Positions 3,383-24,839 of a stretch of DNA of 64,000 nucleotides are shown here, one piece after another. The DNA is taken from NCBI RefSeq assembly GCF_044324785.1, contig NZ_CP172127.1; one strand, written 5' to 3'. Position 1 is the stretch's first letter, and each line of letters starts with the position of its first letter. This DNA is from Escherichia coli. Its GTDB lineage: Bacteria; Pseudomonadota; Gammaproteobacteria; Enterobacterales; Enterobacteriaceae. A program made the position numbers and the translations under genes. Under the pieces are notes generated by a model, which ran no database searches, had not been told where the DNA came from, and worked only from the letters and a program-made list of their open reading frames with translations.

Positions 3383-3966
3383 CTCTGCTCCTCCTGTGTC
3401 ATCCGGTACTGGCGCAAGCGAACGCCTTCGTAATTTTCCATCGACAGACAGTCATAATTGAGACAACGCGATTCATTAGCCGGTTGCGGCACAATTCCCC
3501 ACGCAGCCAGCTGCGCCAGCGCCGCCTGTTCCGCAGCGGGCAGTTGCTCCCGCGCCAGTTCGCTCAGGCTGCCGCCGTAGTCGTCGAGCATTGCGGGTTG
3601 CAGACCGACGAGGGCAATATGTGCTGGCAGATGTCCGCGGATATCTGCCAGCGCCAGCACTTCGGAGAAACTGTTCTGATGCAGGCTCATTTTCTTCGCG
3701 CTGAGATAAGCCGGAATGCGTTCTCCGGCATATGTTCGCAGCGTTCCGGGTTCCAGCCCGTAATCAATGGCATCGAGGATCAACAAGTGACTGGCGCTTT
3801 CGACATACCCCAGCAAGTTCAGTCCCTGAGTACCGCCATCGACAATCTCCACATCCTCGGGCCAGTGGTAATGGGCATACAGCCGTTCCGCCACCCGCAC
3901 GCCGAAGCCTTCATCGGCCCACAGCAGATTGCCCAGCCCCATTACCACCACGCGTTGATCGCTCAT
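3379..3966 (-). CDS. hyaD: Hydrogenase-1 maturation endopeptidase
   Basis: Track ORF 195 aa [29 protein letters not shown]... (HyaD/HybD-family protease). Confidence 0.92.
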
Positions 3967-21435: not shown

Positions 21436-23196
21436 TTGACCATTACGAAACTTGCATGGCGTGACCTGGTTCCTGATACCGATAGCTATCAGGAAATATT
21501 TGCTCAGCCACATTTGATTGACGAAAACGATCCTTTATTCAGTGATACTCAACCGCGACTGCAATTTGCGCTGGAGCAGTTGCTGCATACGCGAGCATCC
21601 TCCTCTTTTATGCTGGCGAAGGCCCCGGAAGAGTCTGAGTATCTGAATCTTATTGCCGATGCCGCGCGTGCGCTACAAAGTGATGCAGGCCAACTGGTGG
21701 GCGGTCACTATGAGGTTTCCGGCCACACCATCCGCTTACGTCACGCAGTGAGTGCAGATGATAATTTTGCGACTTTAACGCAAGTTGTCGCTGCCGACTG
21801 GGTAGAAGCAGAGCAACTCTTTGGCTGCCTGCGCCAGTTTAATGGCGACATTACCCTGCAGCCAGGTCTGGTGCATCAGGCAAATGGCGGTATTCTCATC
21901 ATCTCTTTGCGTACACTGCTGGCGCAACCTCTGCTGTGGATGCGGCTGAAAAATATCGTTAACCGCGAGCGTTTTGACTGGGTTGCGTTTGATGAGTCGC
22001 GCCCTCTCCCCGTCTCTGTGCCTTCGATGCCATTGAAGCTGAAAGTCATTCTGGTAGGCGAACGCGAATCATTGGCTGATTTCCAGGAGATGGAACCAGA
22101 GCTTTCAGAGCAGGCTATTTATAGCGAATTTGAAGACACTCTGCAGATTGTCGATGCGGAGTCAGTAAGCCAGTGGTGTCGCTGGGTGACATTGACCGCC
22201 AGACATAATCACTTACCTGCACCAGGAGCGGATGCCTGGCCGGTACTTATCCGCGAAGCAGCCCGCTACACCGGTGAACAAGAAACACTTCCGCTTAGCC
22301 CGCAGTGGATCCTCCGCCAGTGTAAAGAGGTCGCCTCCCTGTGCGATGGCGACACCTTCTCCGGCGAGCAGCTAAACTTAATGCTGCAGCAGCGTGAATG
22401 GCGTGAAGGTTTCCTCGCTGAACGCATGCAGGATGAGATCCTTCAGGAGCAAATCCTGATTGAAACCGAAGGCGAACGCATCGGGCAAATTAACGCCCTT
22501 TCGGTCATTGAATTTCCGGGTCATCCACGCGCTTTTGGCGAACCTTCTCGCATTAGCTGCGTTGTGCATATTGGCGATGGTGAATTCACCGACATCGAAC
22601 GCAAAGCGGAGCTTGGCGGCAATATCCATGCGAAAGGGATGATGATCATGCAGGCGTTCCTGATGTCGGAACTACAGCTTGAGCAACAGATCCCCTTCTC
22701 AGCATCGCTGACATTTGAGCAGTCATACAGTGAAGTGGATGGCGATAGTGCCTCGATGGCTGAACTCTGCGCCCTGATAAGCGCCCTCGCCGATGTGCCG
22801 GTGAATCAGAGTATCGCTATCACAGGTTCAGTCGATCAGTTCGGTCGTGCCCAGCCGGTCGGTGGTTTAAATGAGAAAATCGAAGGCTTCTTTGCTATTT
22901 GCCAGCAACGTGAGTTAACCGGGAAACAAGGTGTCATTATCCCCACTGCTAACATTCGCCATTTAAGTCTTCACAGTGAACTGGTGAAAGCGGTAGAAGA
23001 AGGCAAATTCACCATCTGGGCAGTAGACGATGTGACTGACGCACTGCCGTTATTATTAAATCTGATGTGGGATGGCGAAGGCCAAACGACGCTGATGCAA
23101 ACCATCCAGGAACGTATCGCGCAAGCATCGCAACAGGAAGGACGTCACCGTTTTCCATGGCCATTACGTTGGCTGAACTGGTTTATTCCGAACTGA
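21436..23196 (+). CDS. ycbZ: Lon protease homolog (S16 peptidase domain protein)
   Basis: Track ORF 586 aa [27 protein letters not shown]...; start codon is TTG; C-terminal Lon-type proteolytic domain (DGDSAS... serine motif). Confidence 0.88.
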
Positions 23197-23264
23197 TCGG
23201 ACTTGTTCAGCGTACACGTGTTAGCTATCCTGCGTGCTTCAATAAAATAAGGCTTACAGAGAAC

Positions 23265-23783
23265 ATGGTAGATAAACGCGAATCCTATACAAAAGAAGAC
23301 CTTCTTGCCTCTGGTCGCGGTGAACTGTTTGGCGCTAAAGGCCCGCAATTGCCAGCACCGAACATGCTGATGATGGACCGTGTGGTCAAAATGACCGAAA
23401 CGGGTGGTAACTTCGACAAAGGGTATGTTGAAGCAGAACTGGATATCAATCCGGATCTGTGGTTCTTCGGATGCCACTTCATTGGCGATCCGGTTATGCC
23501 GGGATGCCTGGGCCTGGACGCAATGTGGCAGCTGGTAGGGTTCTACCTCGGCTGGCTGGGCGGCGAAGGTAAAGGCCGCGCGCTGGGCGTTGGCGAAGTG
23601 AAATTCACTGGTCAGGTACTGCCAACAGCGAAAAAAGTGACCTACCGTATTCACTTTAAACGCATTGTTAACCGTCGTCTGATTATGGGCCTGGCGGATG
23701 GCGAAGTGCTGGTTGATGGTCGTTTGATCTATACCGCCAGCGACCTGAAAGTCGGTCTGTTCCAGGATACGTCTGCCTTCTGA
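23265..23783 (+). CDS. fabA: 3-hydroxydecanoyl-ACP dehydratase/isomerase
   Basis: Track ORF 23067..23783 trimmed to ATG 23265 ([40 protein letters not shown]...), 172 aa. Confidence 0.96.
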
Positions 23784-23807
23784 TTATAATCAGACAGAGT
23801 ATCAAAA

Positions 23808-23840
23808 GGCGAAACCTCCGCAATGCGGAGGTTTCTTTTT
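23808..23840. terminator. Bidirectional terminator between convergent fabA and rmf
   Basis: GAAACCTCCGCAATGCGGAGGTTTC hairpin followed by TTTTT on the plus strand and a short T-run on the minus strand. Confidence 0.8.
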
Positions 23841-23852
23841 AAAGAGACAGAA

Positions 23853-24020
23853 TCAGGCCATTACTACCCTGTCCGCCATGGCTTCTCGCCAGCCTCCCAG
23901 CCATTGTGACCTTTGATTCAGCGTCTGATAGGGACACATTTCTTTTGAGCGTCCGGCGATGCCGGCCTGATAACCACGTTGATGTGCCCGTTCCAGGCGA
24001 TCTCGTTTTTGTCTCTTCAT
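23853..24020 (-). CDS. rmf: Ribosome modulation factor (100S ribosome dimerization)
   Basis: Not in the ORF track (55 aa, below its cutoff). Minus-strand ATG at 24020 gives MKRQKRDRLERAHQRGYQAGIAGRSKEMCPYQTLNQRSQWLGGWREAMADRVVMA, stop TGA at 23853-23855. Confidence 0.93.
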   Translation of the reverse strand: MKRQKRDRLERAHQRGYQAGIAGRSKEMCPYQTLNQRSQWLGGWREAMADRVVMA

Positions 24021-24218
24021 GCCTCGTTTCCCTCATACTGGTTTCTGGTGGAAAAGAAAACAGTGATTACTAAATGTGCAATCACAGTTAAGCAATACCG
24101 CGAATCATAACTGCCGTCAATGCGCAAAATTCACGCCACTGTCATATTTGTGAGCTACACGGGCATGTCGGTTGTACAAAAAATGTGAAGAGGAACAACT
24201 TTTTCCGCAAGTTAGAAA

Positions 24219-24253
24219 CAAAAAAACCGCCTCAGGCAACATACCGGAGACGG
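24219..24253 (-). terminator. Candidate intrinsic terminator downstream of pqiC
   Basis: Minus-strand RNA CCGUCUCCGG..CCUGAGGCGG stem (one wobble, one mismatch) followed by U7. Confidence 0.55.
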
Positions 24254-24275
24254 TTATATTTACAAATCTTTATGA

Positions 24276-24839
24276 TTACGGTAGACGCTTTATCTCTTGC
24301 GCAATAGAAGCGGCTTCCTGACTCCAGACACTGGCCAGCACTTTAACCATTTCATCGTAACCATCCTGAGTTTGCACCCCTTCCAGACGGAACGGACGTT
24401 TGATCAGTTGTCCCTGGTGGTTCAACAGCCACTCACCACTGACAATGACCTTGCCATCATATCGCCCGTTAAACTCCGTTACGGTAACATTGAGCGTATC
24501 CTGGGCGCTTCCCAGAGGCTGGGAGGCAACCACCCAGCCGGGCAGTTGCGTGCTCAGGTTGGCAACCAGAGTGTTGCGCAACTGTTGATCCAACGGGCTG
24601 GCCCACAAGTTGTTGTTGGCAATCACATACTTCACATCACTGGTTTGATAAACCACACCATTTCCGGCCAGATAGTCAGGAACAGCGACCTGCTCTACCC
24701 ATAACAGGCGATTACCCTGGCTGGCGGTACTTTGTGTACCGCTCTGCACCACAGGTAACTGGTAATAGTTTTTATTAATTTCGCCGGAGCTGCATCCGGC
24801 CAGCCACAGTGCTGCAATCGTCACTAGCCACTTTTTCAT
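24276..24839 (-). CDS. pqiC: Paraquat-inducible protein C, outer-membrane lipoprotein of the Pqi MCE pathway
   Basis: Track ORF 187 aa MKKWLVTIAALWLAGCSSGEINKNYYQLP... with lipobox LAGC. Confidence 0.9.
   Translation of the reverse strand: MKKWLVTIAALWLAGCSSGEINKNYYQLPVVQSGTQSTASQGNRLLWVEQVAVPDYLAGNGVVYQTSDVKYVIANNNLWASPLDQQLRNTLVANLSTQLPGWVVASQPLGSAQDTLNVTVTEFNGRYDGKVIVSGEWLLNHQGQLIKRPFRLEGVQTQDGYDEMVKVLASVWSQEAASIAQEIKRLP

Follow-up and report, generated by a model that had tools for sequence, protein, structure and literature searches.

A palindromic hairpin as the probable shared terminator of the convergent genes fabA and rmf in Escherichia coli, with a stem sequence that appears to be conserved along with rmf

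The region between fabA and rmf belongs to a known convergent gene pair of the E. coli chromosome (fabA → ← rmf), and a single palindromic hairpin located in it very probably forms the 3′ ends of both mRNAs, acting as an overlapping bidirectional terminator of the intrinsic type. The 3′ ends of fabA and rmf are already present in published genome-wide tables; that is to say, the shared terminator is already known. The new point is that the stem of the rmf terminator appears, from the comparison of orthologous loci, to be kept in its sequence and not just in its shape across several families of Enterobacterales, while control terminators change.

The fabA–rmf locus and its relation to K-12

In the window (the whole stretch of E. 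coli DNA that was analysed, 64,000 nucleotides in length), the fabA CDS is located on the plus strand at 23265..23783. It encodes the 3-hydroxydecanoyl-ACP dehydratase/isomerase of 172 aa, its stop codon TGA is at 23781–23783, and its product matches the Pfam family FabA (PF07977) with E = 4.8e-53; RefSeq E. coli records, including K-12 b0954, carry the same fabA annotation. The rmf CDS, encoding the ribosome modulation factor, is located on the minus strand at 23853..24020, with the initiation codon ATG at 24020–24018 and the termination codon TGA at 23855–23853. In plus-strand coordinates, the fabA stop ends at 23783 and the rmf stop begins at 23853, so the spacer at 23784..23852, which is assigned to no strand, is 69 bp long, as the initial annotation had stated.

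Bases 23200–24300 match 5,425 of 5,426 complete E. coli genomes, at best with 99.9%. The gene order in RefSeq (strain AST215) is ycbZ, fabA (+), rmf (−), pqiC (−) and pqiB (−), and the same order, in the opposite orientation, is found in K-12 MG1655 from b0955 to b0951, where a position is obtained as 1039735 minus the window coordinate. Between 23265 and 24275, 7 of the 1,011 bases differ from MG1655, none of them in the spacer or in rmf. The K-12 gene b0953 therefore shows no difference from rmf of the window: the protein, the neighbours (pqiC-rmf-fabA-ycbZ) and the DNA of both rmf and the 69-bp spacer are the same. Because of this identity, RNA 3′ ends mapped in K-12 apply to the window as well.

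The rmf gene and its product

Translation of the minus strand over 23853..24020 gives MKRQKRDRLERAHQRGYQAGIAGRSKEMCPYQTLNQRSQWLGGWREAMADRVVMA, i.e., 55 codons, followed by the stop codon. This product matches the Pfam family RMF (PF04957) with 79.6 bits (cutoff 27.9) over profile positions 1–52 of 53, and the NCBIfam equivalog NF011162 with 92.1 bits (cutoff 40). Moreover, it is identical in 55 of 55 residues to two PDB chains, 6H4N chain v and 4V8G chain AV, both named “Ribosome modulation factor”; 6H4N is the solved E. coli hibernating 100S ribosome, and its RMF chain matches the product of the window at 100%. In the E. coli records of RefSeq that were checked, including K-12 b0953, rmf is likewise annotated between pqiC and fabA. 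The 55-aa ORF is rmf, the already-known ribosome-hibernation gene of E. coli.

RMF is expected to drive the dimerisation of 70S into 100S ribosomes in stationary phase. The rmf gene is induced in stationary phase and upon ppGpp accumulation, its promoter being dependent on ppGpp and CRP, and fabA is a growth-phase gene. A scan of 23000–24600 for sigma-70 promoters found none and is uninformative on the rmf promoter. A candidate Shine-Dalgarno sequence, GAGG, can be read at 24022..24025 on the minus strand, only one base upstream of the rmf ATG, which is an unusually short spacing; a second motif, GAGGG, can be read further upstream of the ATG at 24030–24034 on the same strand.

The identical K-12 gene is expressed in stationary phase with formation of 100S ribosomes, and its mRNA decays unusually slowly, the half-life being about 24 min (PMC8778775). 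The 3′ end of rmf mRNA carries short poly(A) tails (PMC1636475; PMC5389530), and rmf mRNA is among the top CLIP-seq targets of the RNA-binding protein YhgF (PMC10201417).

The hairpin in the spacer

The hairpin GAAACCTCCGCAATGCGGAGGTTTC is located at 23811..23835 and has the form GAAACCTCCGC-AAT-GCGGAGGTTTC, in which the two arms (23811–23821 and 23825–23835) pair into a perfect 11-bp stem with 7 G-C pairs and enclose a 3-nt loop (23822–23824). As the stem is perfectly palindromic, it forms identically in the two transcripts, and a terminator scanner matches it on both strands. Within it, the 7-bp core CCTCCGC/GCGGAGG at 23815..23831, again common to both strands, flanks a loop that varies freely among relatives. 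The 64-kb window holds a single match to the core pattern CCTCCG-N3-18-CGGAGG, where 0.03 would be expected.

The folding energies are in agreement with a structure of this kind. The whole spacer folds at −20.3 kcal/mol on the plus strand and −20.2 on the minus strand, compared with about −9 for dinucleotide shuffles (z of −5.1 and −4.3), and 0 of 200 shuffles folded as well; the hairpin by itself folds at about −19 to −20 kcal/mol (z of −4.3 to −5.7).

The sequence following the hairpin reads TTTTTAAAGA on the plus strand and GCCTTTTGAT on the minus strand. In the fabA direction, the U-rich tract UUUUUAAA begins directly after the stem (TTTTT in the DNA). In the rmf direction, the tail is GCCUUUUG, in which four U's start 3 nt past the full stem (GCCTTTT), and this is a weak tract, though a simple scanner flags it as terminator-like. 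The initial annotation had described a GC-rich hairpin between the genes with U-tracts available on both transcripts. The hairpin is present as described and the scanner flags both strands; the shared-terminator reading is refined in that the U-tract on the rmf side is weak in E. coli.

Several other identities of the element were considered. A scan of 23000–24600 with Rfam 15 (E ≤ 1) found nothing reaching the gathering score; its four weak matches (a trpB motif, the Phe and Leu leaders and the rnk leader) are look-alikes which overlap terminator hairpins. A DNA operator bound by a dimeric protein was rejected as an explanation of the palindrome, since the loop separating the half-sites ranges in length between 3 and 14 nt in different species. 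A small ORF spanning the hairpin was also rejected, since the loop does not change length in steps of three nucleotides and the tails are unconserved.

Published RNA 3′ ends

Two published K-12 datasets place the ends of both transcripts at this one hairpin, on its opposite sides. For fabA, the primary 3′ end by TRS is at MG1655 1015892(−), corresponding to 23843 in the window (PMC10687069), and the Term-seq end is at 1015897(−), corresponding to 23838 (PMC7815308); both are located in the plus-strand tail TTTTTAAA at 23836..23843. For rmf, the primary end by TRS is at 1015929(+), corresponding to 23806 (PMC10687069), and the Term-seq ends, from different conditions, are at 1015926/1015927(+), corresponding to 23809/23808 (PMC7815308); these are located in the tail at 23802..23810, which reads GCCTTTTGA on the minus strand. 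That is to say, fabA RNA ends 3–8 nt beyond the right side of the hairpin and rmf RNA 2–5 nt beyond its left side, and the two RNAs overlap by about 30–38 nt spanning the whole hairpin, so that each of them holds the full stem-loop.

The TRS statistic, defined as 1 minus the local read-through, is 0.974–0.996 for fabA and 0.993 for rmf, corresponding to a local read-through of about 1–3%, and below 1% for rmf (PMC10687069). Both ends are sharp in the exponential-phase TRS data, and a further 3′ end on the fabA strand is recorded at 24025 with R = 0.65 (PMC10687069). The latter means that some fabA-strand RNA crosses all of rmf; either termination on this side is incomplete, or an antisense promoter is present. 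The proposal of the initial annotation that one structure probably terminates both convergent genes, and that 3′-end mapping would bear on it, is borne out by published ends which flank a single hairpin.

Distribution of the hairpin among relatives

Species-representative genomes were scanned with FabA, which gave 80 loci from Enterobacterales, Pasteurellales and Vibrionales; three rmf loci unlinked to fabA were added (Pectobacterium, Dickeya and Serratia proteamaculans), and the comparison set overall comprised 85 other loci. The distance between the two genes differs greatly among lineages. In about 40 loci (Enterobacteriaceae, Pantoea, Erwinia, Morganella, Providencia, Edwardsiella and Vibrio), rmf is convergent with fabA at 55–150 bp; the distance is 188–261 bp in Rahnella, Proteus and Yersinia aldovae, and 0.5–1.3 kb in Tatumella, Rouxiella, Hafnia and Photorhabdus. 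Within 1.5 kb of fabA, rmf was not found in Cedecea, Budvicia, Brenneria, Pectobacterium, Dickeya, most Serratia and Yersinia, or Pasteurellaceae. In Pseudoalteromonas, the convergent genes are separated by a 48-bp spacer with a different perfect bidirectional hairpin, and in Vibrio, the convergent pair has two hairpins. The convergent rmf–fabA pair is old.

The core CCTCCG...CGGAGG was found in 42 fabA-anchored loci, the window included, mostly 15–28 nt after the rmf stop. Its position follows rmf and not fabA. The Rouxiella hairpin is 24 nt away from rmf and some 600 bp away from fabA; fabA of Rahnella, Serratia silvae and Kluyvera is followed by a hairpin terminator of its own, which is distinct from the core hairpin and upstream of it; and in Erwinia and Providencia, an extra element is inserted between rmf and the hairpin. 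In the 23 loci without rmf in the 1.5-kb flank, the core was never found after fabA, where unrelated hairpin-plus-T-run terminators are present instead. Moreover, in the three loci in which rmf has another neighbour, namely a co-directional chemoreceptor gene in Pectobacterium brasiliense, a convergent DAHP synthase gene in Dickeya lacustris and a Y1 transposase gene in Serratia proteamaculans, the core hairpin is located 24–28 nt past the rmf stop with a good U-tract on the rmf strand (3 of 3). That the hairpin accompanies rmf also beside genes other than fabA points to its being ancestrally the terminator of rmf itself, one that fabA probably shares in only part of the lineage.

The form found in E. 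coli differs at the edges of the stem. Enterobacteriaceae have a stem lengthened to GAAACC/GGTTTC and a T-rich tail on the fabA side; the mean number of T's in the 10 nt after the core is 7.3 on the fabA side against 5.2 on the rmf side, and in the other families it is 5.9 against 6.9. Although this difference in T is modest, it suggests that the shared use of the hairpin by fabA is derived in the E. coli form, i.e., in Enterobacteriaceae, by way of the extended stem and the T-run on the fabA side.

Conservation of the stem sequence

The helix is supported by covariation. In 37 distinct orthologous sequences, 96% of the cells of the alignment pair, compared with 43–53% after shifting the partner columns. 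The four outer pairs of the 11 change on both sides; 20 sequences, for example, have G-C at the basal pair and 10 have A-U. The inner pairs CCUCCGC/GCGGAGG are nearly constant, with one change from C-G to U-A in the RIT691 and UBA7423 genomes, and the loop is free, with 31 distinct sequences of 3–14 nt between the core arms. These 37 sequences include only loci having the core, and the invariance is partly due to this selection.

A fairer control is provided by Enterobacteriaceae, in which every rmf-bearing locus was included, i.e., without ascertainment bias, together with the loci unlinked to fabA. In the Enterobacteriaceae set, the 8-nt arms of the rmf stem have 2 variants, as against 17–18 for the arms of the pqiC terminator at the same loci, a count of distinct variants that is sounder than the mean pairwise identity of the pqiC arms, which is rough since those stems are out of register. 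In addition, the fabA terminators of loci lacking rmf are unrelated to one another. The constraint on the core is not absolute, because the stem has been replaced in several clades which kept rmf (ACCCCC/GGGGGU in Edwardsiella, and other stems in Rosenbergiella, Proteus, Photorhabdus, Vibrio and Pseudoalteromonas).

Two side observations concern the letters of the stem and its surroundings. In the TRS table of E. coli 3′ termini, with its roughly one thousand or more entries, the string CCUCC was counted 79 times and the string GGAGG 75 times; such stems are a minority and not rare, and the counts are uninformative on function. Outside Enterobacteriaceae, the rmf RNA carries a box AAGGAA or AGGGAA immediately 5′ of the stem.

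A possible sequence-specific role of the stem

The kept stem sequence can also be read in another way, in which the hairpin serves chiefly as a sequence-specific element in the rmf mRNA, such as an autoregulatory site or the binding site of a protein that sets the stability of the mRNA according to growth phase, and termination is only part of its job. Of the alternatives to the shared terminator, it has the most in its favour and is to be regarded as possible, though we would bet against it. The near-invariant core in the 37 sequences, drawn from Enterobacteriaceae, Erwiniaceae, Yersiniaceae, Morganellaceae and Pectobacteriaceae, with a loop that varies, is what such an element would look like, and the 2 arm variants against 17–18 in the unbiased set and the unrelated fabA terminators of rmf-less loci speak in the same direction. 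The core also persists where working in both directions is unneeded, as in Pectobacterium with its co-directional next gene, and the stability of rmf mRNA is regulated, the mRNA being a top YhgF target in CLIP-seq (PMC10201417). Against this stand the clades that swapped the stem yet kept rmf, and the fact that no binding site is mapped to the hairpin. Moreover, a palindrome serving both strands is barred from passing through G-U intermediates, which would be A-C on the other strand, so that this alone would slow its turnover; and the control consists of just two terminators.

A more specific version, in which the core is an element of rmf mRNA read by a protein, the 30S subunit or RMF itself and sets a stability or translation dependent on growth phase, is offered tentatively and is held to be improbable. 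RMF binds in the SD/anti-SD pocket of the ribosome, as in the 4V8G and 6H4N structures, and a link of the core to this pocket is pure speculation. The core ACCUCC has the letters of the anti-Shine-Dalgarno end of 16S rRNA, and the GGAGGU paired with it is the Shine-Dalgarno consensus; in the folded hairpin, ACCUCC is base-paired and not single-stranded, which argues against a simple anti-SD mimic. If the constraint on the stem is functional, it would give access to the way in which the long-lived rmf mRNA is first stabilised and later removed, to the benefit of studies on ribosome hibernation and persistence, without amounting to a new type of system.

Formation of the two 3′ ends

In the preferred reading, i.e., the shared bidirectional terminator, RNA polymerase coming from fabA would transcribe the hairpin and stop in the UUUUUAAA tail, and RNA polymerase coming from rmf would transcribe the same hairpin and stop in the tail (UUUC)GCCUUUU. 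Both ends would arise by intrinsic termination and not by processing, and the 3′ hairpin may be one reason for the slow decay known for rmf mRNA.

The doubt between termination and trimming back to the hairpin concerns mainly the rmf side, where the U-tract is weak. Transcription of rmf could read through or be stopped by Rho, and a 3′-to-5′ exonuclease could then trim the RNA to the hairpin, which would account for the end at this site without intrinsic termination. The poor U-tract of the E. coli tail GCCUUUUG favours such a course, as does the known status of the rmf 3′ end as a substrate of the poly(A) polymerase and exonuclease pathway. The Term-seq ends of rmf are merely 2–3 nt past the stem, closer than the canonical 7–9 nt, which also fits trimming; if the tail is taken to include the lower UUUC of the stem, however, the E. 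coli ends fall 6–8 nt after the GC core, which is canonical. In addition, outside Enterobacteriaceae the hairpin on the rmf strand is followed by canonical U-tracts, e.g., UUUUUGUUU and UUUUUUUU, the TRS read-through beyond the rmf site is below 1%, and fabA is located immediately downstream, so that any RNA reading through would run antisense to a gene that is essential and highly expressed. On this evidence, trimming is an unlikely origin of the rmf end.

Collision is the other course to be weighed, in which termination needs the head-on encounter of converging polymerases paused at the hairpin, as in the Ju/Wang/Liu model. The anatomy of the locus fits (convergent genes, one hairpin, overlapping 3′ ends), and both the model and the class have been described in E. 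coli (bioRxiv 10.1101/2022.10.23.513370). The fabA side, however, is a textbook stem with a U5 tail, and the same hairpin ends rmf where there is no convergent gene, as in Pectobacterium. Moreover, with rmf a stationary-phase gene and fabA a growth-phase gene, little simultaneous traffic is expected, yet both ends are sharp in exponential-phase data. A requirement for collision is thus also judged improbable, to about the same degree as trimming.

If the shared terminator is as proposed, it would insulate the essential growth-phase gene fabA from the stationary-phase gene rmf, and would stand as a textbook-grade overlapping bidirectional terminator.

The overlapping 65-aa reading frame

The initial annotation had noted that rmf was missing from the ORF track, and so it is: at the default cutoff of 60 aa, only a 65-aa ORF is listed over 23784..24100, and rmf, being 55 aa long, is missing because it is too short. 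The 65-aa ORF is located at 23839..24036 on the minus strand, i.e., on the same strand as rmf, which it overlaps in another frame. It begins with ATG and is intact in E. coli and E. albertii, and its frame is open in 18 of 57 orthologous rmf loci; in the other 39, which include close relatives such as Citrobacter, Leclercia, Kluyvera and Enterobacter asburiae, internal stops interrupt the frame, and it is therefore a chance ORF. That it should be a real gene, or a second gene overlapping rmf, has practically no chance of being right, since it matches no Pfam or NCBIfam family and its frame is broken in so many loci, and since it is the rmf frame that is conserved, annotated and present as protein in solved ribosome structures. 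The case can serve for calibration, with a real 55-aa gene falling below the cutoff and a spurious overlapping ORF taking its place, and conservation of the reading frame cleanly tells the two apart.

Comparison with known systems

Rfam contains an “rmf RNA motif”, a 5′ UTR element of Pseudomonas, i.e., a conserved RNA structure upstream of rmf. The two differ in position, as the Pseudomonas motif is located upstream of rmf and the E. coli hairpin downstream of it.

A neighbouring canonical Rho-independent terminator is that of pqiC (about 24212–24246, minus strand). The likeness is in the GC-rich stem-loop, the U-rich tail and the 3′ ends just past the stem. However, the stem sequence of the pqiC terminator changes from genus to genus, whereas the rmf hairpin keeps its 7-bp core across families and works on both strands.

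Bidirectional terminators between convergent genes of E. coli are a described class, according to the account of Ju et al. 2019 given in bioRxiv 10.1101/2022.10.23.513370. The fabA–rmf hairpin resembles the class found by SEnd-seq (Ju, Li & Liu 2019, e.g., ynaJ-uspE) in having one hairpin, an A-run and a T-run on its two sides, and overlapping 3′ ends. That class is described as unlike intrinsic terminators and dependent on collision, whereas the fabA direction here looks like a canonical intrinsic terminator; and the fabA–rmf hairpin differs further from it in that it also ends rmf in genomes where rmf has no convergent partner.

Conservation of the rmf Terminator Stem

The core of the rmf terminator stem (window 23815–23831) is 7 bp long, and its sequence CCUCCGC/GCGGAGG is one and the same throughout several Enterobacterales families (loci L003–L068 and L083–L085, the L-numbers denoting fabA or rmf loci of other genomes), whereas in these same families the hairpin loop and the neighbouring terminators drift in sequence. 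One control for stem turnover was the terminator of pqiC, the gene neighbouring rmf on the side away from fabA. This gene has its own hairpin followed by T7 (window ~24212–24246, minus strand), located upstream of the rmf promoter region, and the published TRS table (PMC10687069) records a 3′ end at this site; the sequence of its stem differs in nearly every genus. The letters ACCUCC in the rmf stem core are also those of the anti-Shine–Dalgarno (anti-SD) end of 16S rRNA, and their pairing partner is the SD consensus GGAGGU.

Outside Enterobacteriaceae, two Vibrio species included, the rmf RNA carries an AAGGAA or AGGGAA box no more than a few nucleotides 5′ of its terminator stem (seen in the 3′ flanks of rmf in L034, L040, L042, L043, L046, L055, L056, L058, L062, L065, L066, L080, L082 and L083–L085). 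Read on the fabA strand, this box is TTCCTT. Possible roles are a GGA site of the SD or CsrA type, or nothing more than a pyrimidine-rich tail for the opposite strand.

The rmf Start Region and Transcripts

The immediate 5′ context of the rmf start is AUGAGGGAAACGAGGC-AUG (window 24022–24036, minus strand), which contains two GAGG motifs. Neither has typical SD spacing, since a single base separates the nearer one from the AUG and the farther one lies at a distance of about 10 bases. In the published K-12 tables, a 3′ end on the fabA strand is located at window 24025 (MG1655 1015710, R = 0.65; PMC10687069), just past the rmf start codon, that is to say, some RNA is antisense to the entire rmf. 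On the rmf strand, a 3′ end is also found inside the gene, 44 nt into the ORF (window 23976, MG1655 1015759; PMC10687069, PMC7815308). It has been reported that rmf mRNA is among the top CLIP-seq targets of the Tex-like protein YhgF, that the two bind in vitro with a Kd of 150–300 nM, and that overexpression of YhgF leads to more rmf mRNA (PMC10201417).

Spacer Variants and Convergent Arrangement in Other Genomes

The Leclercia fabA–rmf spacer contains a (TTTTGC)x6 microsatellite (L005 1846–1890), and in Citrobacter spacers a REP-like palindromic insert separates fabA from the hairpin (spacers of L006, L007 and L011). In Erwinia and Providencia, an additional hairpin element follows the rmf stop and precedes the conserved hairpin. 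The rmf terminator of Serratia proteamaculans is directly followed by a transposase gene of the Y1 (IS200/RAYT-like) type (L085 2869–3327), in the place of fabA in E. coli, and a second palindrome, CCTCCGG...CCGGAGG, is found at 3408. Candidatus Pantoea persica (L052 ~1965–2168) has only a shortened rmf match of 43 aa at 65% identity, with a frame that continues into the end of fabA; in this symbiont genome, rmf is probably decaying.

Convergent rmf–fabA is also found in Alteromonadales and Vibrionales. The Vibrio loci (L077, L080 and L082) have two separate hairpins, and in Pseudoalteromonas tunicata (L087 2672–2719) both genes share a single perfect bidirectional hairpin, AAAACGCCCC-AAAT-GGGGCGTTTT, whose sequence is unlike that of E. 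coli.
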